Below are positions 1-12,305 of a DNA stretch of 12,343 nt, in pieces. Positions within the stretch are counted from its first letter, which is position 1. Every line of letters begins with the position of its first letter. Below the pieces are notes generated by a model. It did not search any database, was not told the DNA's origin, and saw only the letters and a list, made by a program, of their open reading frames with translations. The position numbers and the translations under genes are program-made. Source of the DNA: a virus; UHGV virus genome UHGV-0377305; one strand, 5' to 3'.

Positions 1-1002
1 ATCACCGAGCTGTTCAATATTGCGGGTTGGTATTTTGTAGAGCTGGGCGATTTTCCCCAGACTTTCTGACAGTTCATCAGCTGGCAGCTCAAAGGCTGTT
101 GCCGCCTTTGCTGCCGTACTGGCGAAGGCCAGCAGGTCACGTTTCTGGTCCTCCCAGCTGTCGTCAGGGTTTGCCACATTCATGCGCGCACCACCTTCAA
201 CCAGTGCGGCGAAGTCCACAGCACCGTTTTCCATTGGCAGCTGTTCACTGGCAGCTTTGATGGCATCCTGCATTTCGTAAAAACGCGCAGTGCGGTTGCC
301 ATTATCGTCACGCAGACCATTGACCTGCTTTGCCACACCTTTCATGGCATCTTCCATGCTGGTATAGCTTTTTACCGCCGCCATCACTGGCGCGCCCATT
401 GCCAGCCCTGCAGCCGTGGTGGTGGCTCCGGCTCCTGCGATGCGATCGCGCACTTCAAGCCGTCTTGAGTATTGTTCTCTGGCAGCGTTCATCCGTGCCT
501 GTTGTTCACCCAGACGTTTAAGTGCTTTTTTCTGGCCCGCCAGTGCCTGACGAGTTTCTTCGGCATTTTTCTTAAGTTCTCGCTGGGCACTACTGAGTTG
601 TCTGGTATCAATCCCTGATTCTTTAAGTGCCTGACGTTGTCTCTGGACCGCCCCCAACAAGCCGTTATAGGTCTGCTGAAGTTCCTGTACTCGTGTTTTG
701 GCCTGACTGAATAACTTTGCCTGCGCGGCGGTTGGCCTGTTAGTGGCAGCAAATTGTGTGGCGAGTTTTGCCGCCTCTTCGCGGGCTGCGTTCAGGTTGT
801 TGGCTGTTATGGCTAGTTGCGAGCGCGTCTTGCGAAATTCATCAATTCTGCCAGCCTGCTTATTCAGTTCTTTGAGGCTGTTTCGGGTATTCTGAATTGC
901 GCCAGCCAGCTCTTTCGAACTGGCCTGTGCAGCACGGAATGGGCGGGTGAGTTTGTCAACCGCATTAAGAATGACCTGCAGGCGCAGGTTATTATCACTC
1001 AT
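1..1002 (-). CDS. T: Tail tape measure protein (P2 gpT-like), N-terminal 334 codons; C-terminal part lies beyond the window start
   Basis: Minus-strand ORF opens with ATG (rc of 1000-1002) and reads MSDNNLRLQVILNAVDKLTRPF... with no stop to position 1 (1002 nt, exactly 334 codons). It sits immediately downstream of E/E' with the E' stop overlapping this ATG, as in P2. It is absent from the ORF track only because it runs off the window. Coiled-coil, Ala/Gln-rich composition fits a tape measure. Confidence 0.75.
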   Translation of the reverse strand, partial: MSDNNLRLQVILNAVDKLTRPFRAAQASSKELAGAIQNTRNSLKELNKQAGRIDEFRKTRSQLAITANNLNAAREEAAKLATQFAATNRPTAAQAKLFSQAKTRVQELQQTYNGLLGAVQRQRQALKESGIDTRQLSSAQRELKKNAEETRQALAGQKKALKRLGEQQARMNAAREQYSRRLEVRDRIAGAGATTTAAGLAMGAPVMAAVKSYTSMEDAMKGVAKQVNGLRDDNGNRTARFYEMQDAIKAASEQLPMENGAVDFAALVEGGARMNVANPDDSWEDQKRDLLAFASTAAKAATAFELPADELSESLGKIAQLYKIPTRNIEQLGD

Positions 1003-1431
1003 CGTTGGCCCCGCTTCTCTGAATCGCTTTATACCGCCATTCCAGCACTTCGGTCAGCGGCATAACGTCAGTAACGGATGGCGGCCAGTGAAAGATGGTG
1101 GCGATATCAGCCACCAGATCGTCAACCGTCAGGCTGTCGGTAAACCGGCAAGCACCGACTTCTTCAACAAAAAAGTGACAACCTCAACCGACATGGCAGT
1201 GAGATCTGCCGGGTCCATCTCTGCAATTTCCTGTGCAGTCAGTGCCGGACTGGAGATGCGGGGGATCACGGTCATCATCGCGTTCACATCCATATCCATA
1301 ATGGCCTGCAGGCGTGTACCGCGCAGCGCACCGGACTGCGGTTTACGCAGCACAATTTCGGTGATTTCTGTTTTACCGCGCTTGATGGGGGTATCCAGTT
1401 GAATAGTCTTTTCAGTCTGCTTATCGCTCAT
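995..1431 (-). CDS. gpE+E' fusion made by programmed -1 ribosomal frameshift (tail assembly chaperone, long form)
   Basis: The zero-frame codons TTT TTG inside T_TTT_TTG (minus-strand rc of 1168-1174) allow -1 slippage. The -1 frame then stays open for about 58 codons (FFVEEVGACRFTDSLTVDDLVADIATIFHWPPSVTDVMPLTEVLEWRYKAIQRSGANDE) and ends at a TGA (rc of 995-997) that overlaps the ATG of T. This is the same architecture as P2 E/E+E' and lambda G/GT. Confidence 0.65.
1129..1431 (-). CDS. E: Tail assembly chaperone gpE (P2 E-like)
   Basis: 100-aa minus-strand ORF (MSDKQTEKTIQLDTPIKRG...) between FII and T. It ends shortly after a TTTTTTG heptamer. Position and size match P2 gene E. Confidence 0.8.
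   Translation of the reverse strand: MSDKQTEKTIQLDTPIKRGKTEITEIVLRKPQSGALRGTRLQAIMDMDVNAMMTVIPRISSPALTAQEIAEMDPADLTAMSVEVVTFLLKKSVLAGLPTA
1168..1174 (-). other. Slippery heptamer T_TTT_TTG for -1 programmed frameshift (E to E')
   Basis: Plus strand reads CAAAAAA at 1168-1174, so the minus strand reads TTTTTTG in the X_XXY_YYZ register of the E reading frame. Confidence 0.65.
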
Positions 1432-1456
1432 TTTGCTGTCCTGTCAATTGGGTTCT

Positions 1457-1474
1457 GGCGCGGTATCCCGCGCC
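1457..1474 (-). other. Intergenic stem-loop between FII and E (7-bp GC stem, 4-nt loop)
   Basis: GGCGCGG-tatc-CCGCGCC on the plus strand, a perfect inverted repeat in the 54-nt FII-E spacer. No U-tract follows on the coding (minus) strand, so it is probably not a terminator. It may be an mRNA stability or processing element. Confidence 0.3.
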
Positions 1475-1485
1475 GTTCAGATATA

Positions 1486-2001
1486 TCAGAGGCCGAGGGC
1501 GTTGCGGTGCGCTTCCATCAGGTCCACACCGTCTACAATTTCCACCATGTTGATAAGGTCCACTTCATAGAGCACCTCACCATTGATGGTCAGCTTCGCG
1601 TAGCTGTTGGTACTGGTCACTTTGGTGGTGTTGCTTTCGCCCGTCTTCCACTCGCCGGAATCCACTTCTTTGTGACGTCCACGCACCACAAGCTCCACGG
1701 CCTGCACTTCCCCGGTATCGTCACGCTGGATAGAGCCGGTAAAGCGCAACTGGATACCATCCACCGTGGCTTTGCCCATCTGCTTAAACAGCAGCAGTTC
1801 AGTACCACCAATGGAAAATTCCGTATCCAGTGCGCCGTCATCCAGCCCCAGATCCACATCCACTGCACCCGGCATTCCGCCGCCGCGATACTTCTCATAT
1901 TTGCGGGTAAATTTCGGCAGCGTCAGCGACTCAACGATCCCCTGCCAGTTGTTCCCGTCATTAAACAGGTTCAGGTGTTTTAATTTGCGTGGTAAAGCCA
2001 T
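1486..2001 (-). CDS. FII: Tail tube protein (P2 gpFII-like)
   Basis: 171-aa ORF MALPRKLKHLNLFNDGNNWQG...GGGMPGAVDVDLGLDDGALD..., which closely resembles P2 FII as I recall it. It lies directly downstream of the sheath gene and has an ATG start. Confidence 0.9.
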   Translation of the reverse strand: MALPRKLKHLNLFNDGNNWQGIVESLTLPKFTRKYEKYRGGGMPGAVDVDLGLDDGALDTEFSIGGTELLLFKQMGKATVDGIQLRFTGSIQRDDTGEVQAVELVVRGRHKEVDSGEWKTGESNTTKVTSTNSYAKLTINGEVLYEVDLINMVEIVDGVDLMEAHRNALGL

Positions 2002-2010
2002 GTTGTCCCC

Positions 2011-3183
2011 TTACGCGCTGACCTGGCTGGAGAAATTAACCAGGTACTGATCGGTGATGCGCTGACGCAGCATCAGGTTTTCAAGTGGCGGCACTGGCGT
2101 GTAGTCGTAGTCGATGGTGAGTTTTCCGGCTTTCAGCGTGTCTTTGTCGTTCACCGACTCATCCAGCCAGCAATCACCACCAATGAGATAGCCCTGACTG
2201 ACCAGGCTGCGCATTTTGGCGCGGATACCCTCGATAATGTCGCGGGCCAGCGACGGATTCAGCGGTTTATCCACCGCCCACATGTGCGCTTCTGCCATCG
2301 TGTCCGTCAGCACCTGCGCCGTGCGGGTGTAGTTTTCGAAGGCAAAGAGCGGGTCATCACTCAGGCAGCGGGAACCCCAGAAGCGAAAACCGTCTTTGCG
2401 GATAAGGGTGGTGACGTCGTTCTGGTTCAGCAGTCCCGCATCGGTTGCCGGGTCCTGCAGATCCCAGAACACATCAGCAGAAATTCCGGTGACACCGTTA
2501 ACGCCCACGTTGGACAGGCTTTTGTGCCATCCGGTCTGCTCGTCAATTTTGGCGCGCAGACCAAGCGCACGGGCGGTGGCATAAGCCGTTGCTTCGGCAT
2601 TCAGCACCGTGTCCCAGCCAGTAAAGTCGGGCCAGATCAGCATTCCTTCACGCTGACTGAAGTTTTCACGGTAAGTGATTGCTTCCTGCACCGTCTTGCA
2701 ACCATACGCTGACAGGTAAGCAAATCCACGCAGGCTTTGCGCCACACTCAGCAACTCAGTAGCTACCGCCTTCGTGTCGTGACCTGGCACGCCGAGAATG
2801 CGCGGTTTAACGCCGAGCTGTGACTGGGCAGATAACAGGGCTTTCATGCCTGTTTTTTTACCTTCAGCGGTCACTGCGCCGATGATATTGGTCGTGGTTT
2901 CGTCTTCCGTTTCACCCTGCGGCACACGCACAACAATGGTCACGGGTTTTGCCTGGTCAGCGATGGCATCCAGCGAACGAGCCAGCGTGCCTGACTCACC
3001 CGCTTTACCGCTGGCAGTCAGCACATCAGTGATCAGCACGGGTTTATTAAGAGGAAACATTTTTGCATCGGCATCATCGCCCGTGCAGACCATACCCACG
3101 ATGGCGGTGCTCACCGTGGTAATGGATCGGGTGCCTTCGTTGACTTCAACAACGCGCACCCCGTGGTGGTAATCCTGAGCCAT
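2011..3183 (-). CDS. FI: Contractile tail sheath protein (P2 gpFI-like)
   Basis: 390-aa [36 protein letters not shown]...[31 protein letters not shown]...[24 protein letters not shown], matching conserved P2 FI blocks from memory. A strong SD (AGGAGG, rc of 3193-3198) lies 9 nt upstream of the ATG. Confidence 0.92.
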
Positions 3184-3259
3184 AGTGGCGAACCTCCTGA
3201 TTGGATTAGGCTTCGCCCTATGTTGAAGTGATTGTGCCTGACAAACAGCTAAGCGCAGT

Positions 3260-3277
3260 TGTACCGTTATTCACACA
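3260..3277 (-). promoter_or_regulatory. Candidate Ogr/Delta-type late promoter activator site (TGT-N12-ACA dyad) upstream of FI
   Basis: Minus strand reads TGT-GTGAATAACGGT-ACA (plus-strand tgt at 3260-3262 and aca at 3275-3277, 12-nt spacer), centred about 85 nt upstream of the FI ATG, in the pin-FI intergenic region. P2 late promoters carry this dyad near -55. The motif is short and can occur by chance. Confidence 0.4.
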
Positions 3278-3325
3278 AAATGACGGTATTTGTCTGCTTT
3301 CAGGGATAATCAAAATAAAGCTGAT

Positions 3326-3892
3326 TCAGGGAGATTTATTGTTCTTATTTGCCGGAAATTTTCGATAAATGGTAGAAACGCCTACATCAAAAATCAGTGC
3401 AATACGCTGTCTTGATTCTCCGTCCTCGAGTAAACGCCCAATCTGTGCCCACTGTTCGCTGGTCAACTTAGGACGGCGTCCACCTACTCTGCCTTTAGCA
3501 CGAGCTGCAGCCAGCCCCGCCCTGGTACGTTCAACTATCAGTTCGCGTTCCATTTCAGCCAGGGCACCCATGACATGAAAAAAGAAACGGCCCATTGGGG
3601 TGCTGGTATCAATACTGTCAGTCAGGCTTCGGAAATTCACGCCACGCTGGCGCAGCTCTTCTATCAGCGTAACAAGATGCCGCATACTGCGCCCCAGTCT
3701 GTCCAGCTTCCAGACAACCAGCGTGTCTCCTGCCGATAGTGTCCTGAGCAGCTTTTTCAGCCCCGGTCTGTCGGACTTGGTGCCACTGATTTTATCCTCA
3801 AAAATCCGCTCACATCCCGCACAGTTCAGTGCATTGCGTTGCAAATCGGTGTTCTGGTCATTTGTTGACACGCGTACATAGCCAATAAGCAT
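3326..3892 (-). CDS. Serine site-specific DNA invertase (Gin/Pin/Cin/Hin family)
   Basis: ORF MLIGYVRVSTNDQNTDLQRNAL...DRLGRSMRHLV...GRFFFHVMGALAEMERELIVERTRAGL... carries the resolvase/invertase catalytic N-terminus (the serine in YVRVSTNDQ) and a C-terminal HTH. The track ORF starts two codons earlier (MIM...); the second ATG matches the paralog's start. Confidence 0.9.
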   Translation of the reverse strand: MLIGYVRVSTNDQNTDLQRNALNCAGCERIFEDKISGTKSDRPGLKKLLRTLSAGDTLVVWKLDRLGRSMRHLVTLIEELRQRGVNFRSLTDSIDTSTPMGRFFFHVMGALAEMERELIVERTRAGLAAARAKGRVGGRRPKLTSEQWAQIGRLLEDGESRQRIALIFDVGVSTIYRKFPANKNNKSP

Positions 3893-3947
3893 GATCATCC
3901 CCCTGAATAAAAACCGGAGATGATGCCAGTTAGCCGTTATCTCTGCA

Positions 3948-3973
3948 TTTTCATAAACGTCGGTTTACGGGAA
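3948..3973. other. gix/cix-like 26-bp crossover site A (inverted partner of site B)
   Basis: TTTTCATAAACG-TC-GGTTTACGGGAA. The inner half, extended to a 17-mer CGGTTTACGGGAAACGG (3961-3977), is the exact reverse complement of 5370-5386. The site resembles the Mu gix consensus (TTCCTGTAAACCGAGGTTTTGGATAA, from memory). It lies between the invertase start and the Sv cassette. Confidence 0.6.
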
Positions 3974-4327
3974 ACGGTAAATAAGGCCGCTGATGCCCTG
4001 CCATCGGGGGGAACCGCCGTGGCAGCAAACAGACTCGCCACCCCAAGAAATATTAATGGTGTTCCTTTCGACGGGACGCGGGATATAAACATTACGTCAG
4101 GAATGCCGGAATCAACGGCCAATCAGCGTTATGTTACAGGGGTAAGACTGGGAGCGCAGGCATTAAGCGGCGTACTGGAATATAATTACTCCCTGTCATC
4201 AGGAAATGTGATTACCGGTTTTAAGACTGACGGAGACTGGGAAATGCGTGGTGGTGATGACCGTGTTTATTACAGACAGATACAATATTGTATTAATGGG
4301 AATTGGGTATCCGCTGCAAGTATTTAA
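3962..4327 (+). CDS. Tail-fibre C-terminal variable cassette (Sv); no constant N-terminal part attached in this orientation
   Basis: The open frame begins inside crossover site A (GLRETVNKAADALPSGGTAVAANRLATPRNINGVPFDGTRDINITSGM...). The first roughly 50 residues are homologous to the start of the opposite cassette, then the two diverge. The only in-frame ATGs upstream (3920, 3923) have no usable SD spacing. Reported as a cassette, not an independent gene. Confidence 0.6.
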   Translation, partial: GLRETVNKAADALPSGGTAVAANRLATPRNINGVPFDGTRDINITSGMPESTANQRYVTGVRLGAQALSGVLEYNYSLSSGNVITGFKTDGDWEMRGGDDRVYYRQIQYCINGNWVSAASI

Positions 4328-4447
4328 TTAACGGCTCATGGCGTACGGCAGGCAGCGCCTGATATATGCGTTATCTCAGACAACCCCTGTCCGTATATAG
4401 CGATAGTATTATTCCTGTTTTTATCATTGATTCACATGGTGATGTTT

Positions 4448-4969
4448 ATGCAACTGATTAATGTTAAACGATATTACCCGGAAAATACCCTCTATGGTAA
4501 TGATGTACAGTATTTTCAGAGTGAAGATGGTAAGGATTTCTACGAGTCCCTGCCATTATTCACAAAAAAATATAAACTTTGTATAACACCTGACAGCGGC
4601 ATTATCTGCTCAATATCACAGGACGCTTCGGCGCTGTATCCTGCGGGGTTCTCTGTGGTTGAAGTCGACGAACTCCCTGAAGGTGCTGATATTTCGGGTA
4701 ACTGGAAGTTTGATAATGGCGTGATCTCCCGTATTCCGGTTAACTACGCAAGAAAACTGGAAGCAATGCGCCAGTCATATCTTAATCAGGCATATGAAAA
4801 AATTAATGACTGGAGAACAGAATTACAGCTGGGCACCATCAGTGATGAAGACAGAGCCGCACTTACCCGATGGATGGCATACATCAGTCAGGTGAAAAAA
4901 ATGGAACTACCAGCGATTAAAAACAAAGCTGAATTTGACGACATTAAATGGCCGGAGAAGCCTGAATAA
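4448..4969 (+). CDS. Tail fibre assembly protein (Tfa/gpG/U-like chaperone)
   Basis: ORF MQLINVKRYYPEN...SEDGKDFYE...GFSVVEV...DWRTELQLGTISDEDRAALTRWMAYISQV... has the conserved Tfa layout and the C-terminal Tfa motif. It lies immediately downstream of Sv on the same strand. The track ORF starts at an upstream TTG (4427); the ATG at 4448 is the more likely start. Confidence 0.8.
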   Translation: MQLINVKRYYPENTLYGNDVQYFQSEDGKDFYESLPLFTKKYKLCITPDSGIICSISQDASALYPAGFSVVEVDELPEGADISGNWKFDNGVISRIPVNYARKLEAMRQSYLNQAYEKINDWRTELQLGTISDEDRAALTRWMAYISQVKKMELPAIKNKAEFDDIKWPEKPE

Positions 4970-4972
4970 CGT

Positions 4973-4996
4973 AAAGGGTGCTTATCGCACCCTTTT
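4973..4996. terminator. Bidirectional intrinsic terminator between convergent tfa and Sv'
   Basis: Perfect 9-bp stem AAAGGGTGC-ttatc-GCACCCTTT followed by T on the plus strand, with a T-rich stretch on the minus strand. It sits in the 34-bp gap between the tfa stop (4969) and the Sv' stop (5004). Confidence 0.6.
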
Positions 4997-5003
4997 CCTT
5001 TAA

Positions 5004-5385
5004 TCAGACGGATGAAACTGTGCGCCAGGCATTACCGATATATATCTGCACCGGACGGTAATAAACGCCTCCGATATTATCGGCTGAATTTCTCCCGGTC
5101 TCCTGCACGTTAATACCTGAAAGCATACAACCGGAAGGCGCGCCATAACTCCAGGACATTTCATTACCTCCGGGTGAATGGTAACTCTGGGCACCAAGCT
5201 GAACGTTGCGAACGTATTTGTTATCAGCAGCAGCTTCGGTCATACCGGAGGTAATGTTGATATCCTGCGTTCCGTCAAAGGGAACACCATTAATTGTGTG
5301 GGCATTTGCCAGCCTGTTCGCGGCAACGGCCGTTCCGTTCGATGGCAGGGCATTCGCCGCCCTGTTTACCGTTTCCCGTAAACCG
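5004..5385 (-). CDS. Alternative tail-fibre C-terminal variable cassette (Sv'), start-less
   Basis: The minus-strand frame opens just inside site B, immediately after an in-frame TGA, and reads NLGLRETVNRAANALPSNGTAVAANRLANAHTINGVPFDGTQDINITSGMTEAAADNKYVRNVQLGAQSYHSPGGNEMSWSYGAPSGCMLSGINVQETGRNSADNIGGVYYRPVQIYIGNAWRTVSSV. Its N-terminal part is homologous to Sv and the C-terminus is different. No start codon or SD is at the cassette head. Confidence 0.6.
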
Positions 5386-5399
5386 AGGTTTCAGGGATG
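5374..5399. other. gix/cix-like 26-bp crossover site B
   Basis: TTCCCGTAAACC-GA-GGTTTCAGGGAT, matching Mu gixL (as recalled) at about 20 of 26 positions. It lies in inverted orientation to site A, 54 bp upstream of the second invertase ATG. Confidence 0.65.
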
Positions 5400-5452
5400 C
5401 CGTATATCTGCTTTAAAAAGCATTTCCACCTCTTTTTAAGGAAGGTAAATAC

Positions 5453-6013
5453 ATGCTGATTGGCTATATACGCGTATCAACAAATGACCAGAACACAGGT
5501 TTACAAAGAAATGCGCTGGAATGTGCAGGATGTGAGCAGATTTTTGAAGACAAAATGAGTGGTAAAACGACGCAGCGGCCGGGACTGAAGCGGGCACTGA
5601 AGAAACTAAAACCCGGCGACACACTGATGGTCTGGAAACTGGACAGGCTGGGGCGCAGTATGCGCCACCTTGTTGCGCTGACAGATGAATTACAGCAACA
5701 GGGGATAAATTTTCGTAGTCTTACTGACAACATTGATACGTCAACCCCCATGGGGCGCTTCTTTTTTCACATAATGGGTGCGCTGGCAGAAATGGAGCGT
5801 GAATTGATTGTCGAACGGACACGGGCTGGTCTTGCTGCTGCCCGTGAAAGGGGACGAACCGGCGGCAGACCCCGTCGTCTCACGCAGGAACAATACGAGC
5901 AGGTCGGGCGTTTACTGGCCGGGGGTGTCAGCCGAAGACAGGTGGCACTTATTTTTGATATCGGCCTTTCAACCCTTTATCGTTATTATCCTGCGAGCGT
6001 TTCGGAAAAATAA
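5453..6013 (+). CDS. Serine site-specific DNA invertase (Gin/Pin/Cin/Hin family), second paralog
   Basis: ORF MLIGYIRVSTNDQNTGLQRNALECAGCEQIFEDK...DRLGRSMRHLV...GRFFFHIMGALAEMERELIVERTRAGLAAARERG..., with an SD AAGGAAGG upstream. It is about three-quarters identical to the 3326-3892 invertase by eye (not computed) and is transcribed away from the cassette region. Confidence 0.9.
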   Translation: MLIGYIRVSTNDQNTGLQRNALECAGCEQIFEDKMSGKTTQRPGLKRALKKLKPGDTLMVWKLDRLGRSMRHLVALTDELQQQGINFRSLTDNIDTSTPMGRFFFHIMGALAEMERELIVERTRAGLAAARERGRTGGRPRRLTQEQYEQVGRLLAGGVSRRQVALIFDIGLSTLYRYYPASVSEK

Positions 6014-6112
6014 GACGCTCTCTTTGTTGGGCCTTTACTGAATTAACGCAAAATGGCGTTTATCGGTCTGTGGATATGATAATTCTGTTTATTCAGGAAC
6101 AGGCTGATTATT

Positions 6113-8152
6113 ATGACGTCCAAATGGGTTCAACTATCATCAATGCCCGGAAACTTTACTGTTAAAGTTTCCGGTGGTACAGCGGCATTTCTTGAGGCTC
6201 CCTTTCCTCCGGCCGAAACAAAAGGAGGAATGACATTTGCTGACTGTCTCATCAGTTTTAATACACGGGATTGCCTGTGGGTAAGGCCAGTATCCGGTGA
6301 TCCGAGCGTGGAAATTACCGGTGCGGGTATTGGTGCTGTCATTCCGTTAAGTGCTGATGTTGCCGGTACTGCTGAACCGTCAGACTGGGATAATGCTGAA
6401 ACACATACCCGTCCGTCAGGAAATGAAACTGCTTCCAGCTCCCCTTCCTGGTATTACGTGGTGGTTCTTGCTGGTCAGTCAAACGGGATGGCCTACGGTG
6501 AAGGTCTGCCGCTGCCGGAGACATATGACCACCCCGAACCGCGTATTATGCAGTTAGCCCGTCGCAGTACAGTCACGCCGGGAGGTAAAGCCTGTCAGTA
6601 TAACGACATCATTCTGGCCGACCACTGTCTGCATGATGTGCAGGATATGAGTGGAAAAAATCACCCGAAAGCGGATGTGGCTAAAGGGCAATATGGCACC
6701 GTGGGTCAGGGGCTTCACATTGCCAAAAAACTGCTGCCGTTTATTCCGGCAGATGCGGGGATTCTGCTGGTTCCCTGCTGCCGTGGTGGTTCTGCATTCA
6801 CGGCGGGTGCTGACGGCACGTACAGTGACAGCACGGGTGCTTCAGAGGACTCAGCCCGCTGGGGTGTGGATAAGCCGCTGTATAAGGACTTAATCAGCCG
6901 GACAAAAGCGGCACTGGCGAAGAACCCGAAAAACCGCCTGCTTGCTGTGGTGTGGATGCAGGGCGAGTTTGATATTGATGCGAAGCCGACGGAGCATTCC
7001 GCGCTGTTTCTGGCGATGGTGGAAAAATTCCGCGCAGACCTGGCTGAACAGGCGGAACAGTGTACCGGTGGCAGTGCTGCTGGCGTTCCGTGGATTTGTG
7101 GCGATACCACGTATTTCTGGAAACAGAAAAACGAACAGGCATACCAGGCAATCTATGACGGCTACAAAAATAAAACAGATAAAAACATTCATTTCGTCCC
7201 ATTAATGACAGATGAAAATGGCGCGAATGTACCCACCAACAATCCGACAGAAGACCCGGATATTGAATCCATTGGTTATTACGGCTCAACGTGGCGTAAC
7301 AGTGCCGCCACCTGGACATCTGCGGGCCGGGCCAGCCATTTCAGTTCATGGGCACGTCGTGGGATTATTTCCGACCGTCTGGCCACGGCTGTTCTGACTC
7401 ATGCAGGGCGAACCACAGTAAAAGCCGATGTTCCATCTTCTGAAACTGAAGCACCAGTGCCGTCACCTTCAGAAACTGAAGCAGTAACCACAACACTGCT
7501 GTCTTACCGTGTCAGTGAGTCAGAAGGAAATCTGAAAGCCCAGGGCTGGGAGCCGGCTGGCGGTAAAGCTGAAATTATCAGTGATGCAGGAGGCACAGGT
7601 GGTAAGGCAATGAAACTGACCAAGGAAACAGGTAAATCATCCTGGTATCTGGATCATGATGCCGGTACTGGTGCTGAACTGCTGAAAAATGGTGGTTTAA
7701 TCAGTTGTCGTTTTAAAGTACCTGGCGACCTGGTGGCAAACCAGTATGTCATGGCGCTTTACTGGCCGGTTTCCTCTCTGCCGCAGGGTGTCACCCTGAC
7801 AGGGGATGCAGGGAATAATCTGCTGGCATCGTTCTACATCCAGACAGACGCAAAAGACCTGAATGTGATGCACCACAATGCAAAAGTGGCAACAAATAAC
7901 CAGAAACTGGGAACCTTTGGTGTATTTGATAATGAATGGCATACGCTGGCCTTCCGTTTTGCAGGAAATAACAGCCTTCAGGTTATTCCGGTTATTGATG
8001 GTCAGGATGGTGCCGCGTTTACCCTGACGCAGTCACCAGTAGGAACTTTCCCGGTGGACAAACTCCGCGTAACGGATATCACCAAAAATGCAACTTACCC
8101 GGTGCTGATTGACAGCATTGTGGTGGAAGTGAAAAAAGCGGTAACAGAATAA
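6113..8152 (+). CDS. Putative SGNH/sialate O-acetylesterase-domain protein (NanS / prophage NanS-p-like) with a C-terminal probable carbohydrate-binding domain
   Basis: 679-aa ORF. The central region carries VVVLAGQSNGMAYGEGLPLP...LLVPCCRGGSAFT...VVWMQGEFD...WICGDTTYFW, i.e. the GQSN block and downstream blocks typical of sialate O-acetylesterase (SASA/DUF303) domains. A Ser/Thr/Pro/Glu linker (SETEAPVPSPSETEA) precedes an approximately 230-aa C-terminal domain. Function is assigned from motifs only. Confidence 0.6.
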   Translation: MTSKWVQLSSMPGNFTVKVSGGTAAFLEAPFPPAETKGGMTFADCLISFNTRDCLWVRPVSGDPSVEITGAGIGAVIPLSADVAGTAEPSDWDNAETHTRPSGNETASSSPSWYYVVVLAGQSNGMAYGEGLPLPETYDHPEPRIMQLARRSTVTPGGKACQYNDIILADHCLHDVQDMSGKNHPKADVAKGQYGTVGQGLHIAKKLLPFIPADAGILLVPCCRGGSAFTAGADGTYSDSTGASEDSARWGVDKPLYKDLISRTKAALAKNPKNRLLAVVWMQGEFDIDAKPTEHSALFLAMVEKFRADLAEQAEQCTGGSAAGVPWICGDTTYFWKQKNEQAYQAIYDGYKNKTDKNIHFVPLMTDENGANVPTNNPTEDPDIESIGYYGSTWRNSAATWTSAGRASHFSSWARRGIISDRLATAVLTHAGRTTVKADVPSSETEAPVPSPSETEAVTTTLLSYRVSESEGNLKAQGWEPAGGKAEIISDAGGTGGKAMKLTKETGKSSWYLDHDAGTGAELLKNGGLISCRFKVPGDLVANQYVMALYWPVSSLPQGVTLTGDAGNNLLASFYIQTDAKDLNVMHHNAKVATNNQKLGTFGVFDNEWHTLAFRFAGNNSLQVIPVIDGQDGAAFTLTQSPVGTFPVDKLRVTDITKNATYPVLIDSIVVEVKKAVTE

Positions 8153-8158
8153 AAAAAA

Positions 8159-8187
8159 TCCCGCCGGTCATGATATGGCTGGCGGGA
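8159..8187. terminator. Hairpin after the esterase gene (A8 tract upstream; U-tract only on the minus strand)
   Basis: TCCCGCCGG-(11-nt loop)-CTGGCGGGA, a 9-bp stem with one G-U pair. On the plus strand it is preceded by AAAAAAAA and not followed by a T-run. On the minus strand it is followed by T8. It may act bidirectionally. Confidence 0.3.
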
Positions 8188-8301
8188 GCTACCTAACCCA
8201 TAAAGGAAAATAAAAATACTCCCGAAGGAGTAGTTACCAGTCACTTCGTCATGTTTTTACCCGATAACGAATTATGTAGTCAATATCAAAGGTAAGGTTA
8301 T

Positions 8302-8484
8302 ATGACATTCGTTCATACAATGCTGCTTTATTTCTGCGCTGTGGTCAGTGCGTTATATCTGGTGAGCGGCGGTTATAAGGTCATCAGAAATTATATTCGC
8401 CGCAAAATTGATGACGCAGCAGCCGAAAAGCTCAGTAAAACAGCACAGGCACCATCATCCCCAAACGACCCGACCCCGCTCTGA
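8302..8484 (+). CDS. Hypothetical small membrane protein (60 aa, one predicted TM helix)
   Basis: ATG start with AAGG upstream. Hydrophobic N-terminus MLLYFCAVVSALYLVSGG followed by a basic and polar tail. No family recognised. Confidence 0.5.
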   Translation: MTFVHTMLLYFCAVVSALYLVSGGYKVIRNYIRRKIDDAAAEKLSKTAQAPSSPNDPTPL

Positions 8485-8519
8485 TAACGGGGCAATATAC
8501 CTGCAAAAGGAGAATATTC

Positions 8520-8765
8520 ATGCCAGAGATTAAAGGCACGGTTACTGAAGAGCTTGTCAAACAGGCACTTTATTCTGAAGAAGTGAACCGCGTGCTGAAG
8601 GCGCAGGTTCGCAAGGATTTTGAGGCACAAATCGACGCATATGTTGATGAAGTGCTGGCCCGAATGGTTGGCCGTTCTCCGGCTGAAAACAGCACGGAAA
8701 ATGCTCCTCAACCCGTAGAGCAACCAGAGCCGGTTCAGCCCGGAACTGACGGTACTATGATGTAA
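8520..8765 (+). CDS. Hypothetical protein (81 aa, acidic Pro/Glu-rich C-terminus)
   Basis: Strong SD AAGGAG 8 nt upstream of the ATG, and a perfect hairpin immediately downstream. No family recognised. Confidence 0.6.
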   Translation: MPEIKGTVTEELVKQALYSEEVNRVLKAQVRKDFEAQIDAYVDEVLARMVGRSPAENSTENAPQPVEQPEPVQPGTDGTMM

Positions 8766-8774
8766 CAATACCGA

Positions 8775-8805
8775 CCGGCAGGTTTCCCTGCCGGGTGAAT
8801 TTGTT
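8775..8805 (+). terminator. Probable intrinsic terminator after the 81-aa ORF
   Basis: Perfect 8-bp stem CCGGCAGG-tttc-CCTGCCGG followed by the T-rich GTGAATTTGTT, 10 nt after the stop codon. Confidence 0.45.
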
Positions 8806-9119
8806 AATGCACGTTTTGTGTATTTTCCCTCTGGGGAGAACAGGCAGGGCATATCAGCATCCTGAAACAGGAAGCATTTTTTGGTTTGTATGTCTTGCCA
8901 TTTTGAGATCGAGAACGGCGATAGATGAGCTGTAAGGGAGTCTTACAGGCAGGGTAAACAGGCTCTTTATCCATGATAAAGATCTCCTTTTTATGCATCT
9001 CTGCTTTACAGGAGACCGGGGAATATCATAGGATACGCCACGAGCTCGAAGTAAAGCATTGATGCAAAATTGTCTAAATCGGCCCAGAATAGTTCGCGCT
9101 ATCTGGGTCGCCCTTTATG

Positions 9120-9155
9120 TATGTAGTATCCCATTGATTTGAAACATACTACATA
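9120..9155. promoter_or_regulatory. 10-bp inverted repeat with 16-bp spacer (candidate operator)
   Basis: TATGTAGTAT-(16 nt)-ATACTACATA in the AT-rich region about 230 bp upstream of com. Confidence 0.25.
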
Positions 9156-9197
9156 TACGCACAATCCTACCTTCACTGTATAAAAAGTCAATAAAAT

Positions 9198-9340
9198 GAT
9201 CATTTTATGATCGTTTTCACCACCTAACTCTTCGTTTTCTTTAAGTAAATAATCACCGCCCTGAATCATTGTTGATGACTTTTCAATCTATTTGTTGTAT
9301 CAATTAAACAAACCGAATCGATCGTTTTTGTCGATCGATT
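9198..9340. promoter_or_regulatory. GATC (Dam-site) cluster with palindromes upstream of com, a candidate methylation-sensitive control region
   Basis: Four GATC sites in about 140 bp (9198, 9209, 9320, 9333). Two sit in the palindrome AAAATGATCATTTT and its neighbour, and two in the 9-bp-arm inverted repeat AATCGATCG-tttttgt-CGATCGATT (9316-9340), about 45 bp upstream of the com ATG. This recalls the GATC/OxyR region of the Mu mom promoter. Confidence 0.35.
9293..9310 (+). promoter_or_regulatory. Candidate Ogr/Delta-type late-activator dyad (TGT-N12-ACA) upstream of com
   Basis: TGT-TGTATCAATTAA-ACA, centred about 82 nt upstream of the com ATG. This is the same dyad geometry as upstream of FI. 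Chance occurrence is possible. Confidence 0.3.
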
Positions 9341-9383
9341 GCATGAGAAAGGCATCAACAACAAAGCAGGAGGTTATGCGGCC

Positions 9384-9569
9384 ATGTATCGAAACATACG
9401 GTGCCGACACTGCAATAAGCTACTGGCACGGGCCAGTTTCAGTTATCTGGAAGTAAAATGTCCGCGCTGCAAAACCCTCAATCAAATCACATCTCAGAGC
9501 GCCACAGAGCACCCCACATACACAAGGAAATCCTGCCGTGGGGAACAAGAAACATTACTTTCAGTCTGA
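9384..9569 (+). CDS. com: Com-like zinc-ribbon translational activator (Mu Com family)
   Basis: 61-aa ORF MYRNIRCRHCNKLLARASFSYLEVKCPRCKTLNQITSQSATEHPTY... with the Com-type CxxC...CPRC zinc ribbon and an EHPT motif, as recalled for Mu Com. AGGAGG lies 9 nt upstream of the ATG. The 3' end overlaps the start of the downstream gene by 32 nt, as com overlaps mom in Mu. The track ORF begins at an upstream TTG (9339). Confidence 0.75.
   Translation: MYRNIRCRHCNKLLARASFSYLEVKCPRCKTLNQITSQSATEHPTYTRKSCRGEQETLLSV
9512..9543 (+). promoter_or_regulatory. Possible translation-inhibiting stem that sequesters the MTase GTG start (candidate Com target)
   Basis: CCCCAC (9512-9517) can pair with GTGGGG (9538-9543). 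The start codon lies in the 3' arm and the SD in the 20-nt loop. This is analogous in position to the stem-loop in mom mRNA that Com unwinds. The stem is only 6 bp. Confidence 0.3.
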
Positions 9570-10590
9570 TAAGTCACTAACCTATGGTTCAGTATGCAGT
9601 GGTATTGAAGCTGCGACAGTAGCCTGGAGCAATCTTGGCTGGAAAGCCAGATGGTTCAGTGAAATAGAGGACTTCCCGTCAACACTTCTTTCATATCGCT
9701 GGCCCCATATACCAAATCTTGGTGATATGGCTTTGCTTGCGCCTCGTATCAGGGATGGGCTTATTGAAGCACCAGATATTCTTGTAGGTGGAACTCCGTG
9801 TCAGGCATTCAGTATGTCAGGCAAACGAAAAGGCCTTTCAGATCCACGGGGGCAGTTAACACTGTCTTTTGTTGAACTGGCGAATCAGATAGATACCGTT
9901 CGGGCATCGCTCAATAAATCCCCCTCAATAATCGTATGGGAAAACGTCACAGGAGTTTTAAGTAGCCATGACAATGCATTCGGTCATTTTCTTGGTGCGC
10001 TGGCCGGAGCAGGTTGCGCATTACAGCCAGCAAGGAAAAGATGGGCAAACGCTGGTGTTGTGTCTGGACCATCGCGTATCGTCGCCTGGCGAGTACTTGA
10101 TGCCCAATATTTCGGAGTCGCCCAGGCTCGCAGAAGAGTGTTTGTTGTGGCAAGTGCTGGAAAAAGGCTCGATCCCGGAAAGGTATTATTTGAGTTCCCG
10201 CCTGTGTCGCAGGGCGATAAAAACTATTACGGAAAGAAGAAAAAATCCGAATCCCTTCTTGATCAAGGCATTGAAGGAAAATTGCACCGATATTGCCTTG
10301 AAGCATTGCCAAAACGAACAGGCACAGTAATAGCTGGCTATAACGGAACAACTAACCAGGACATGACTATGTCTGGTGGGCTCATAGTTGAAAGAGCGCC
10401 ATATTCAAGGGTTCGTAGGTTGACGCCAACCGAATGCGAGAGGCTACAAGGTTTTCCCGATGGATATACAGATATTCCATGGAAAAATTCATCTCCAGCT
10501 CATCGTTATAAGGCCATTGGAAATTCAATGCCTGTACCGGTCATGAAATGGATTGGTCGAAGAATACAGGAAGCGTTAAACGAAGTTTAA
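9538..10590 (+). CDS. DNA (cytosine-5)-methyltransferase
   Basis: 350-aa ORF with canonical C5-MTase blocks: GGTPCQAFSMSG (PCQ catalytic motif IV), IIVWENVTG (ENV motif VI), QARRRVFVVA (motif VIII), RRLTPTECERLQGFPDGYT and AIGNSMPVPVMKWI (C-terminal motifs). The N-terminal GSVCSGIEAA stands in place of motif I. GTG start at 9538 with AAGGAAA 8-9 nt upstream; no alternative start exists in frame after the upstream stop at 9454. Confidence 0.88.
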   Translation: MGNKKHYFQSDKSLTYGSVCSGIEAATVAWSNLGWKARWFSEIEDFPSTLLSYRWPHIPNLGDMALLAPRIRDGLIEAPDILVGGTPCQAFSMSGKRKGLSDPRGQLTLSFVELANQIDTVRASLNKSPSIIVWENVTGVLSSHDNAFGHFLGALAGAGCALQPARKRWANAGVVSGPSRIVAWRVLDAQYFGVAQARRRVFVVASAGKRLDPGKVLFEFPPVSQGDKNYYGKKKKSESLLDQGIEGKLHRYCLEALPKRTGTVIAGYNGTTNQDMTMSGGLIVERAPYSRVRRLTPTECERLQGFPDGYTDIPWKNSSPAHRYKAIGNSMPVPVMKWIGRRIQEALNEV

Positions 10591-10608
10591 ACCTAAGCAA
10601 AAGACATT

Positions 10609-10914
10609 ATGAAGTTGGTTTTTGTGCCGTTAAAAGATGTCTTTAAGGAGTGCAAAGGAAAGCGCCAATTTAGTATCAAAAAAGATGCTTATCGGCGCTT
10701 TTCATCGGTATCAAATGAAATGCAAATCTGTATCAAAAAAATCGCCGCGCTATATACCCGAAAAGAAAACGTATTTACCAGTTGGGTGATGCGATTGCTG
10801 ATTGTTGTAAGTCTCGCCTGGACGGGGTGGGCTATTACCCTGGTCTTTTATCTACTGACCGTTATTGCCTTCTGGATCACCCGTAATCAGATGGCGCAAC
10901 AGGTAGCAGCATGA
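10609..10914 (+). CDS. Hypothetical protein; the C-terminal hydrophobic part may be a LysA-like remnant fused to unrelated N-terminal sequence
   Basis: 101-aa ORF. The N-terminal half is AT-rich, hydrophilic and lacks a clear SD. The C-terminal roughly 40 aa (WVMRLLIVVSLAWTGWAITLVFYLLTVIAFWI) is membrane-like and ends overlapping the lysB start (ATGA), the position lysA occupies in P2. Confidence 0.4.
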   Translation: MKLVFVPLKDVFKECKGKRQFSIKKDAYRRFSSVSNEMQICIKKIAALYTRKENVFTSWVMRLLIVVSLAWTGWAITLVFYLLTVIAFWITRNQMAQQVAA

Positions 10915-11339
10915 ACCGGTTACTGCTGGTTGTGCTGGCGTTATTACTGGCGGCGCTGGGCTGGCAGACGTGGCGGCTGGCTGATGCCAGCCAGACCATC
11001 AGCACGCAGGCAGACGAGCTGCAGAGCAAAAGCCAGGCACTGGCAAAGAGCAACAGCCAGCTTATCAGCCTGTCTATTCTGACTGAAACCAATAACCGGG
11101 AGCAGGCGCGGCTCTATGCCGAAGCAGAACAGACCAGCGCGCTGCTGAGACAACGACAACACCGGATCGAGGAACTGAAACGTGAGAACGAGGATTTACG
11201 CCGCTGGGCTGATACTCCTTTGCCTGCTGACATTATCCGGCTGCGGGAACGCCCCACACTCACCGGAGGTGCAGCTTACCGTCAGTGGTTGTCCGCGAGT
11301 GACGCCGTGTCGGCTGGATCAGGCAGCGCCGCGCACTAA
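10911..11339 (+). CDS. lysB: LysB (Rz-like inner-membrane spanin)
   Basis: 142-aa ORF with an N-terminal TM helix (LLLVVLALLLAALGW) followed by a coiled-coil, Gln/Glu/Arg-rich periplasmic region. It lies upstream of R and S with lysC embedded in the +1 frame, the P2 arrangement. Confidence 0.75.
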   Translation: MNRLLLVVLALLLAALGWQTWRLADASQTISTQADELQSKSQALAKSNSQLISLSILTETNNREQARLYAEAEQTSALLRQRQHRIEELKRENEDLRRWADTPLPADIIRLRERPTLTGGAAYRQWLSASDAVSAGSGSAAH

Positions 11340-11472
11340 CGGTGATCTGAATGCGTTGCTGGATGAAACGGAGGCCGCCTGGGCGGTCTGTGCAGACAAA
11401 GTGGATATGATTATTGCGTGTCAGGAGCGAAACAGTGAACAAACCACAATCCCTGCGCCACGCCCTCAATAA
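11182..11472 (+). CDS. lysC: LysC (Rz1-like outer-membrane lipoprotein spanin), embedded in and extending beyond lysB
   Basis: 96-aa ORF in a different frame from lysB, with signal peptide and lipobox (LLCLLTLSG-C) and a Pro-rich mature part. GTG start. Confidence 0.7.
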   Translation: MRTRIYAAGLILLCLLTLSGCGNAPHSPEVQLTVSGCPRVTPCRLDQAAPRTNGDLNALLDETEAAWAVCADKVDMIIACQERNSEQTTIPAPRPQ

Positions 11473-11866
11473 AGCAGTGCCTTATGTCCGCAATAACCCG
11501 GACAAACTGCATCTGTTTGTGGATAACGGTTCGCTGGTTGCCACGGGGGCCAGCTCCATGTCGTGGGAGTACCGTTACACCCTGAACGCGGTGATTGAGG
11601 ATTTCAGCGGCGACCAGAATCTGCTGATGGCCCCGGTTTTGCTGTGGCTGCGTGATAACCAGCCCGATGCCATCAATAACCCGGCGTTACGGGAAAAACT
11701 ATTCACCTTTGAGGTGGATATTCTGCGCAACGATGTCTGTGATATCAGCCTTAACCTGCAACTGACGGAGCGTGTGCTGGTCAGCACTGACGGTAGTGTG
11801 TCGAGCGTTGAAGCTATAGCGGAACCTGATGAACCTGAAGAAATGTGGACGGTGAAACGTGGCTGA
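11435..11866 (+). CDS. R: Tail completion protein R (P2 gpR-like)
   Basis: VNKPQSLRHALNKAVPYVRNNPDKLHLFVDNGS...LNAVIEDFSGDQNLLMAPVLLWLRDNQPD...LQLTERVLVS resembles P2 gpR as recalled. The likely start is GTG 11435 with AGGAG 8 nt upstream; the track ORF starts at TTG 11414. Confidence 0.85.
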   Translation: MNKPQSLRHALNKAVPYVRNNPDKLHLFVDNGSLVATGASSMSWEYRYTLNAVIEDFSGDQNLLMAPVLLWLRDNQPDAINNPALREKLFTFEVDILRNDVCDISLNLQLTERVLVSTDGSVSSVEAIAEPDEPEEMWTVKRG

Positions 11867-12305
11867 ACTGCAGAAAGTGGACGACTGGCTGAGTGCCTTG
11901 CTGGCGAATCTGGAACCAGCCGCCAGAAGCCGCATGATGCGCCAGCTGGCGCAGGAACTGCGCCGGACACAGCAGCAGAACATCAGGATGCAACGCAATC
12001 CTGATGGCAGCAGCTATGAACCGAGGCGAGTAACAGCACGCAGTAAAAAAGGCCGTATCAAACGGCAGATGTTTACAAAACTTCGCACCACAAAATACCT
12101 GAAAACCGCCGCCAGCGAGGATTCTGCCAGCGTGCAGTTTGAAGGTAAGGTGCAGCGCATTGCCCGCGTTCACCATTATGGCCTGCGTGATCGCGTCAGC
12201 CGCAAAGGACCGGAGGTCCGTTACGCAGAGCGTCGCCTTCTGGGTGTAAATGATGATGTTGAGGCAATGACCCGCGACATGATTCTGCAATGGTTGGCGG
12301 GGTGA
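11859..12305 (+). CDS. S: Tail completion protein S (P2 gpS-like)
   Basis: MAELQKVDDWLSALLANLEPAARSRMMRQLAQELRRTQQQNIRMQRNPDGS... resembles P2 gpS. The GTG start overlaps the R stop (GTGGCTGA), which suggests translational coupling. Confidence 0.85.
   Translation: MAELQKVDDWLSALLANLEPAARSRMMRQLAQELRRTQQQNIRMQRNPDGSSYEPRRVTARSKKGRIKRQMFTKLRTTKYLKTAASEDSASVQFEGKVQRIARVHHYGLRDRVSRKGPEVRYAERRLLGVNDDVEAMTRDMILQWLAG

Follow-up and report, generated by a model that had tools for sequence, protein, structure and literature searches.

A lysA chimera very probably left by transposition of a Mu-like prophage into a P2-like prophage

Results

Very probably, a Mu-like prophage of ~39 kb has transposed into lysA of a P2-like prophage, splitting the lysis cassette of the latter without deleting it, and the 101-aa open reading frame (ORF) found at the junction is an accidental fusion that most probably has no function. 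The junction lies in a stretch of 12,343 nucleotides from UHGV virus genome UHGV-0377305, hereafter called the window, whose features are collected in Table 1. A preliminary description of this DNA had read the locus differently, as a truncated lysis cassette in which holin and endolysin genes were replaced by a com-methyltransferase cargo, with a chimeric lysA-like ORF left by recombination near 10780.

Composition of the fusion ORF

The ORF runs on the + strand from ATG to TGA. Its ATG at 10609 lies 18 nt past the stop of the methyltransferase gene, in identical orientation, and its stop shares an ATGA (10911-10914) with the start of lysB. The two halves are unlike, as had been recognised at the outset. 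GC content is 37% over 10609-10754 and 48% over 10755-10914; mean Kyte-Doolittle hydropathy is -0.19 for residues 1-49, among them 12 lysines and arginines, and +0.84 for residues 50-101; and the database matches switch at the junction. Base-by-base comparison placed the breakpoint between 10754 and 10755, so that the proposed junction exists and is sharp, but lies 25 bp away from the position first given. When the whole window was compared with complete E. coli genomes by megablast, matches to Mu-like prophages ended at 10754 or 10755, extending over 5237-10754 and, in some genomes, over 3956-10754 or 10755. Megablast of 10400-11500 against phage genomes returned P2-like matches that begin exactly at 10755, in Escherichia phage 500465-1 (genus Wadgaonvirus), many Klebsiella prophage-derived phages and the circular 37-kb record CP019275.1. 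With a 401-bp query laid across the junction, none of the complete E. coli genomes in the collection covered both sides.

The hydrophobic C-terminal part of the ORF derives from a lysA-family gene, of which it is the 3' end, still at the native place before lysB, as the preliminary description had supposed. By BLASTP, residues 50-101 are identical at 51 of 52 positions to residues 74-125 of an intact 125-aa homolog. NF038378, the NCBIfam model (DNZ54_00345 family) by which RefSeq names the lysA-family gene, matches residues 46-100 of the chimera at profile positions 70-124 of 124 (E=2.6e-15), and the intact homolog at positions 1-124 (E=4.3e-36). The full-length LysA alignment that had been named beforehand as evidence against a chimera is thus absent, and by its partial profile match the ORF falls outside the LysA family. 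It does so also by its helices: a hydropathy scan of the chimera gave hydrophobic stretches only at residues ~55-95, corresponding to helices 3-4 of the family's four, whereas the intact homolog has two extra N-terminal hydrophobic blocks. As to gene position, the lysB side is present with its ATGA overlap; K is absent upstream within the window and lies on the opposite side of the insert, beside the 5' fragment of lysA. Pfam-A, in a version older than PF28015, gave no match for either the chimera or the intact homolog, and the evidence for the family is that of NCBIfam and precomputed Pfam tags.

P2's own LysA (141 aa) was almost uninformative when aligned, with only 30-31% identity over 32-33 residues (pairwise E=0.003 for 30% over 33 residues). 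Given so low a similarity, the relation to P2 LysA proper is drawn from family models and synteny; the informative references for the lysA side are P2-like phages of the Wadgaonvirus type. The gene order of P2 in NC_001895, X-Y-K-lysA-lysB-lysC-R-S, confirmed the order Y-K-lysA-lysB from which the preliminary description had argued. In the same record, the annotation of P2 lysA calls the gene non-essential, with an effect on the timing of lysis only, and a single late O operon, with an O-operon attenuator and terminator, runs through S. P2 LysA is described as an antiholin with four helices (PMC3091744).

Two other LysA chimeras with a break near codon 74, P0055 and P0070, proved to have arisen by unrelated deletion or rearrangement in P2-like prophages; both had been chosen by query coverage, and they provide no evidence of an insertion hotspot. 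In an unrelated P2-like prophage (L030, 4001-4875), lysA is joined by a deletion, at codon 74, to the portion of the tail sheath gene that encodes the C-terminus. The break is within one codon of the same lysA position; with hits chosen by coverage, this is likewise no evidence of a hotspot.

Table 1. Features of the window (positions count from its first nucleotide; a slash marks a prophage end)
Feature	Position	Strand	Remarks
P2-like tail genes: sheath FI, tube FII, E, start of T	1..3325	-	inverted relative to the P2-like lysB-R-S block
Serine invertase, P2-like prophage	3326..3898	-	Resolvase and HTH_7 domains; 98.6% DNA identity to CP019275.1
Hybrid 26-bp crossover site	3948..3973	+	P2-like half TTTTCATAAACG (left), core TC, Mu-like half GGTTTACGGGAA (right)
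Mu-like invertible G-type segment	3974..5372	.	tail-fibre C-terminal variants and tail-fibre assembly gene; PF02413
26-bp invertase crossover site (gixR-like)	5373..5398	+	TTCCCGTAAACC GA GGTTTCAGGGAT; beside Mu-like invertase gene
Gin-type serine invertase, Mu-like prophage	5453..6013	+	PF00239, PF02796; recombinase in L002, L003
com (Mu Com-type zinc ribbon), Mu-like prophage	9384..9569	+	PF10122, E=1e-12; RefSeq 'Com family' in L002, L003
C5 cytosine DNA methyltransferase, 350 aa	9538..10590	+	where Mu has mom; PF00145, E=1.6e-42
Right terminal region (attR-like), Mu-like prophage	10591..10754	+	ends ...CGCCGCGCTATA-3'
Chimeric 101-aa fusion ORF	10609..10914	+	codons 1-48 Mu-like right end; 49 across junction; 50-101 LysA-family 74-125
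Terminal repeat TTTGATAC, R3-like, putative transposase-binding site	10673..10680	-	third from end, 76 nt inward
Terminal repeat TTTGATAC, R2-like, putative transposase-binding site	10708..10715	-	second from end, 41 nt inward
Terminal repeat TTTGATAC, R1-like, putative transposase-binding site	10730..10737	-	first from end, 19 nt inward
TACC, right copy of 4-bp target-site duplication	10755..10758	.	left junction ...ATTACC/TGTAACC (L010, L011)
3' fragment of P2-like lysA-family gene	10755..10914	+	codons 74-125; last two of four predicted membrane helices
lysB (Rz-like spanin), intact	10911..11339	+	TIGR03495, E=9.8e-52, profile 1-134 of 135
lysC (Rz1-like spanin), intact	11182..11472	+	out of frame inside lysB and R; NF038368, E=5.3e-37
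P2 gpR-type tail completion gene	11435..11866	+	PF06891 on identical gene in L004
P2 gpS-type tail completion gene	11859..12305	+	PF05069 in L004

The right end of a Mu-like prophage

In E. coli genomes, the DNA leading up to 10754 forms the right-hand terminus of a ~39 kb prophage. This prophage carries genes for a repressor, a Ner-like HTH protein, Mu transposase, a MuB-type AAA ATPase, Kil, Gam, GemA, Mor and lysozyme, further Mu-type tail and baseplate genes, an invertible tail-fibre segment and a gin-type invertase, and then genes for a SASA/DUF6645 protein, DUF1378, DUF826, com and the methyltransferase. Domains of the Mu transposase (PF02316/PF09299) and of MuB (PF09077) are present in L010, and RefSeq annotates a 'Mu transposase' in L008, L012, L027 and L028. 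The prophage also has lysozyme and spanin genes of its own. The supposed com-methyltransferase cargo is in fact a module of the Mu-like phage itself, in com/mom position. In the relative L019, Mom (PF25680) stands where the window has the methyltransferase, and the DNA-modification gene behind com appears to be exchangeable.

Between the invertase gene and com, the right arm encodes a 679-aa protein (6113-8152) with a sialate O-acetylesterase-like (SASA) domain and DUF6645, and small DUF1378 and DUF826 proteins at 8302-8484 and 8520-8765. Two overlapping ORFs on the minus strand at ~8391-8998 are, according to RefSeq, a frameshifted pseudogene in the relatives L002, L003 and L013.

The end ...CGCCGCGCTATA (or ...GCGCTATA) meets unrelated DNA at 13 different insertion sites, which include ttdB, comEC, a lambdoid tail gene, a hydratase gene and places beside his and mhp genes. 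Phage Mu has three transposase-binding sites at each end, clustered on the right and spread on the left. The Mu-like prophage likewise has three TTTGATAC repeats per end, to which binding is putative, close together on the right and spread on the left: from the left end, 5'-TGTAACCAGG..., they lie 19, 114 and 166 nt inward. The first repeat is 19 nt inward at both ends. With this layout, the AT-rich and lysine-rich N-terminal half of the fusion ORF is explained as terminal repeats in translation.

The reciprocal junction and the target duplication

With the intact LysA homolog as query, two proteins with a matching source pattern were retrieved, the chimera (P0085) and a 99-aa protein, P0060, in which LysA residues 1-73 are followed by 25 residues that exactly translate the Mu-like left end (TGTAACCAGG...). 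The P0060 contigs come from ERZ27281703 and SRR7411377, and both samples also contain the right junction. A 34.6-kb contig reads, in order, the last 36 nt of Y, the K endolysin gene (PF00959), lysA', repressor, transposase, MuB, Kil, Gam and GemA. The contig end falls within Y, so the holin gene of the reciprocal-junction lineage is represented by those last 36 nt only.

The left flank ends in ...ACAATTACC and the right flank starts with TACCCGAAAAG, while the intact target reads ATTACCCG (L001, L009), also given as ACAATTACCCGAAAAG. TACC occurs as a single copy in the intact target and as one copy on each side of the insert. Joining the two flanks minus one TACC restores an intact 125-aa LysA-like ORF, which differs from the L009 reference at 3 residues. 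The reconstructed LysA and the TACC repeat together are the signature of simple transposition. The two junctions are linked by their shared samples and by the perfect reconstruction; the whole composite was not seen on any one contig.

These data bear directly on the proposal that com and the methyltransferase had replaced Y, K and the 5' half of lysA by recombination, leaving a truncated cassette. Such a replacement would explain why the window has no holin or endolysin gene ahead of lysB and why the DNA upstream is foreign to P2-like phages. However, the foreign DNA has at its end the terminus of a transposable phage, known from many unrelated sites, Com together with a DNA-modification gene is a standard module of the Mu-like right arm, and the 5' half of lysA and K are found on the Mu-like left end in the same samples, with TACC duplicated. 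We therefore consider a replacement very improbable: holin and endolysin did not give way to cargo, and the cassette was split by transposition, with a reciprocal junction bearing the TACC repeat, and not truncated. The preliminary description had itself allowed that the lysis genes might be elsewhere, and this alternative was the correct one, as they lie ~39 kb away beyond the Mu-like insert. It had also held that Y and K homologs just beyond the inserted DNA would speak against a replacement, and such homologs were found in the case of K and of the last 36 nt of Y.

Prophage repeats frequently misjoin, and the junction is in no complete E. coli genome of the collection, which raises the question of a chimera of Mu-like and P2-like prophages made by assembly or scaffolding and absent from any cell. 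Against this, the exact 101-aa product occurs on 5 contigs from at least 4 samples, with record names that suggest different assembly pipelines; three of these contigs match the window at 100% identity and a further one at 99.86% over 11.7 kb. Furthermore, the reciprocal junction and the matching 4-bp duplication come from the same samples, and a misjoin gives no duplication. An artefact of this kind is exceedingly improbable, even more so than a replacement.

Origin of the fusion

We propose that the transposable Mu-like prophage, ~39 kb long, jumped into the lysA-family gene, encoding a putative antiholin, of a resident P2-like prophage. The insertion point separates lysA codons 73 and 74, within the loop that links predicted membrane helices 2 and 3, and the 4 bp TACC is duplicated, the window representing the right-hand junction. 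K and lysA' are now at the left end of the prophage and 'lysA-lysB-lysC-R-S at its right end. A 48-codon frame from ATG 10609 crosses the three terminal repeats and exits the phage as ...CTA TA/N, where the slash marks the prophage end. With T as the first target base and a match to the lysA frame, the ORF continues through 52 lysA codons to the natural stop. The outcome at other sites fits this scheme: an A or G as first flanking base gives a stop after 48 codons, which is the case at 5 of the 12 other sites with an intact frame, and the product of the end-ORF ranges there from 48 to 189 aa (50 to 189 aa for those that read through), depending only on the flank. The L016 copy of the end-ORF has an early stop and amounts to 21 aa.

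No Shine-Dalgarno-like sequence was found within 20 nt upstream of ATG 10609, and promoter and terminator scans around the fusion ORF gave results at chance level. Some transcription of the ORF is plausible, given that it lies directly downstream of the com-methyltransferase operon in the same orientation. As far as can be read from the DNA, the 101-aa protein is probably an accidental fusion without function.

The same origin could also have produced a fusion that is expressed and functional, namely a two-helix membrane protein made from the late com-methyltransferase transcript of the Mu-like phage and serving as a partial antiholin or as a translation coupler for lysB-lysC-R-S. The shared orientation with the methyltransferase gene, the gap of 18 nt, the native ATGA overlap with lysB and the retention of two C-terminal hydrophobic helices would all suit such a role, as would the occurrence of the lineage in several samples and hence its persistence. 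Nevertheless, we consider it unlikely: ATG 10609 has no ribosome-binding site, the N-terminal 48 codons overlie putative transposase-binding repeats, the products at other sites are arbitrary and include the stops after 48 codons described above, half of the family profile is absent, and P2 lysA is annotated as non-essential. An accidental fusion is thus our preferred account of the ORF.

A 4-bp duplication and a TA terminus

Phage Mu makes 5-bp target duplications and has a CA terminus. The Mu-like insertions for which both ends were read (window 10750-10758 with L010 745-760, L008/L003, L012/L002, L027/L013 and L028/L029) have 4-bp flanking repeats in five cases out of five, these being TACC, AGAG, CGAC, AATT and TGGA. 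The fifth flanking base differs in four of the five, which speaks against a duplication of 5 bp as in Mu. The right terminus is TA (...TATA-3') in all copies and the left is TG, which is not the 5'-TG...CA-3' arrangement. By its 4-bp duplication and its TA-3' right end, this Mu-like group therefore departs from textbook Mu. No report of a 4-bp duplication in E. coli Mu-like prophages was found in the part of the literature covered, which is weak evidence. For specialists in transposition, the uniform 4-bp duplication is a minor anomaly open to testing.

A hybrid invertase site

The left part of the window is again P2-like. Positions 1-3966 are 98.6% identical to the P2-like record CP019275.1, but in the window this block (T, E, FII, FI and invertase) is on the minus strand; in the record the same genes lie downstream of lysB-R-S and in the same direction. 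The change from P2-like to Mu-like sequence occurs inside the crossover site at 3948-3973. As in segments of the Gin/Cin/Hin type, this site and that at 5373-5398 are inverted, share the core TC/GA and have invertase genes adjacent. The G-type segment between them matches the G segment of L002 in opposite orientation, and the two invertase genes that bracket it (3326-3898 and 5453-6013) are both intact. An independent 15-kb contig (L004) has an arrangement identical to that of the window, and L005 also crosses the hybrid site.

The simplest reading, judged from one of the two products, is an inversion between the left crossover site of the Mu-like prophage and the right crossover site of the P2-like one. 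The flipped DNA would start with the Mu-like invertible segment, include the right end, 'lysA and lysB, and reach as far as the P2-like H gene. Searches for the reciprocal inversion junction with the Mu-like S protein and the P2-like Hv' fragment gave no match with the lineage signature, and the candidate P0242 belonged to an unrelated myovirus prophage. Alternatively, recombination may have involved a second P2-like prophage at another place in the genome. Contigs of the lineage break inside Y (L010 position 1), after J (L004), and, beside the two crossover sites, at window position 3837 (L005 start) and at window position 5365 (L006 start). These breaks fit either repeats from another P2-like prophage or inversion isomers coexisting in the samples.

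Taking the inversion further, the locus may form one composite in which invertases of the Gin/Cin type act across prophages, the window being one isomer of a reversible inversion of ~14 kb, a length estimated from the reference P2-like map, on top of a transposition with a 4-bp stagger and a TA terminus. We offer this combined account tentatively and regard it as doubtful in its entirety. If true, the inversion would alternately scramble and restore both prophages, parting the right end of the Mu-like one from its left end and flipping P2-like lysB through H relative to FI/FII.

Discussion

The split of lysA has consequences for the P2-like prophage, which is very likely defective and unable to make phage. 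With ~39 kb placed inside the counterpart of the single late O operon of P2, lysB, lysC, R and S are separated from the late promoter. The cut through the late O operon, R and S being off their promoter and the inversion of a part of the prophage together point to this defect. Disruption of lysA alone would not abolish lysis and would only shift its timing, judging from the annotation of P2 lysA. The preliminary description had suspected a lysis-defective prophage; a defect is very likely, but loss of holin and endolysin is not its cause. The composite element is also far too large for packaging, given the capsid capacity of P2.

For annotation, the 101-aa ORF is best treated as a junction artefact, neither a LysA protein nor a new gene. 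Its use is to show precisely where, inside the P2-like prophage, the nested Mu-like one has its right end. Prophage prediction should count two elements in this region, of which the P2-like one is interrupted and partly inverted. The locus offers a clean natural case of insertion of one phage into another, and a composite of this Mu-like and P2-like kind was not reported in the literature covered, which was partial and is weak evidence on the point. Recombination between the tail-fibre switches of two unrelated prophages is, in addition, a proposed route for the exchange of tail-fibre modules.

Set beside known systems, each part of the locus has a familiar counterpart from which it departs. 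Residues 50-101 of the chimera share 98% identity with the last 52 residues of members of the P2 LysA family (PF28015 / NF038378), and the fragment keeps its native position and native ATGA overlap onto lysB; unlike the members, it lacks helices 1-2, has an unrelated N-terminus and covers only profile positions 70-124 of 124. The right arm resembles the Mu com-mom module in that a Com zinc-ribbon gene overlaps the start of the modification gene, in the last operon before the right end and downstream of gin. Here, however, a C5 cytosine methyltransferase replaces Mom, and SASA/DUF6645, DUF1378 and DUF826 are extra genes between gin and com. The crossover sites agree with the Gin/Cin/Pin/Hin systems in their 26-bp length, 12-bp half-sites, 2-bp core and inverted arrangement, and in flanking tail-fibre variants near serine invertases. 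They differ in that one site is a hybrid of P2-like and Mu-like halves, and the invertases come from two prophages.

The kind of event is itself well known, being insertional disruption by a transposable phage, here with an accidental fusion ORF. As in the disruption and fusion of genes by bacteriophage Mu, the agent is a complete transposable prophage with MuA/MuB-type genes and terminal repeats at both ends, it occupies many sites and makes a short target duplication, and the split gene can be rejoined in silico. What differs from Mu is that a gene belonging to another prophage was hit, that 4 bp instead of 5 were duplicated, that the right terminus is TA instead of CA, and that a reading frame leads out of the phage end and into the target.
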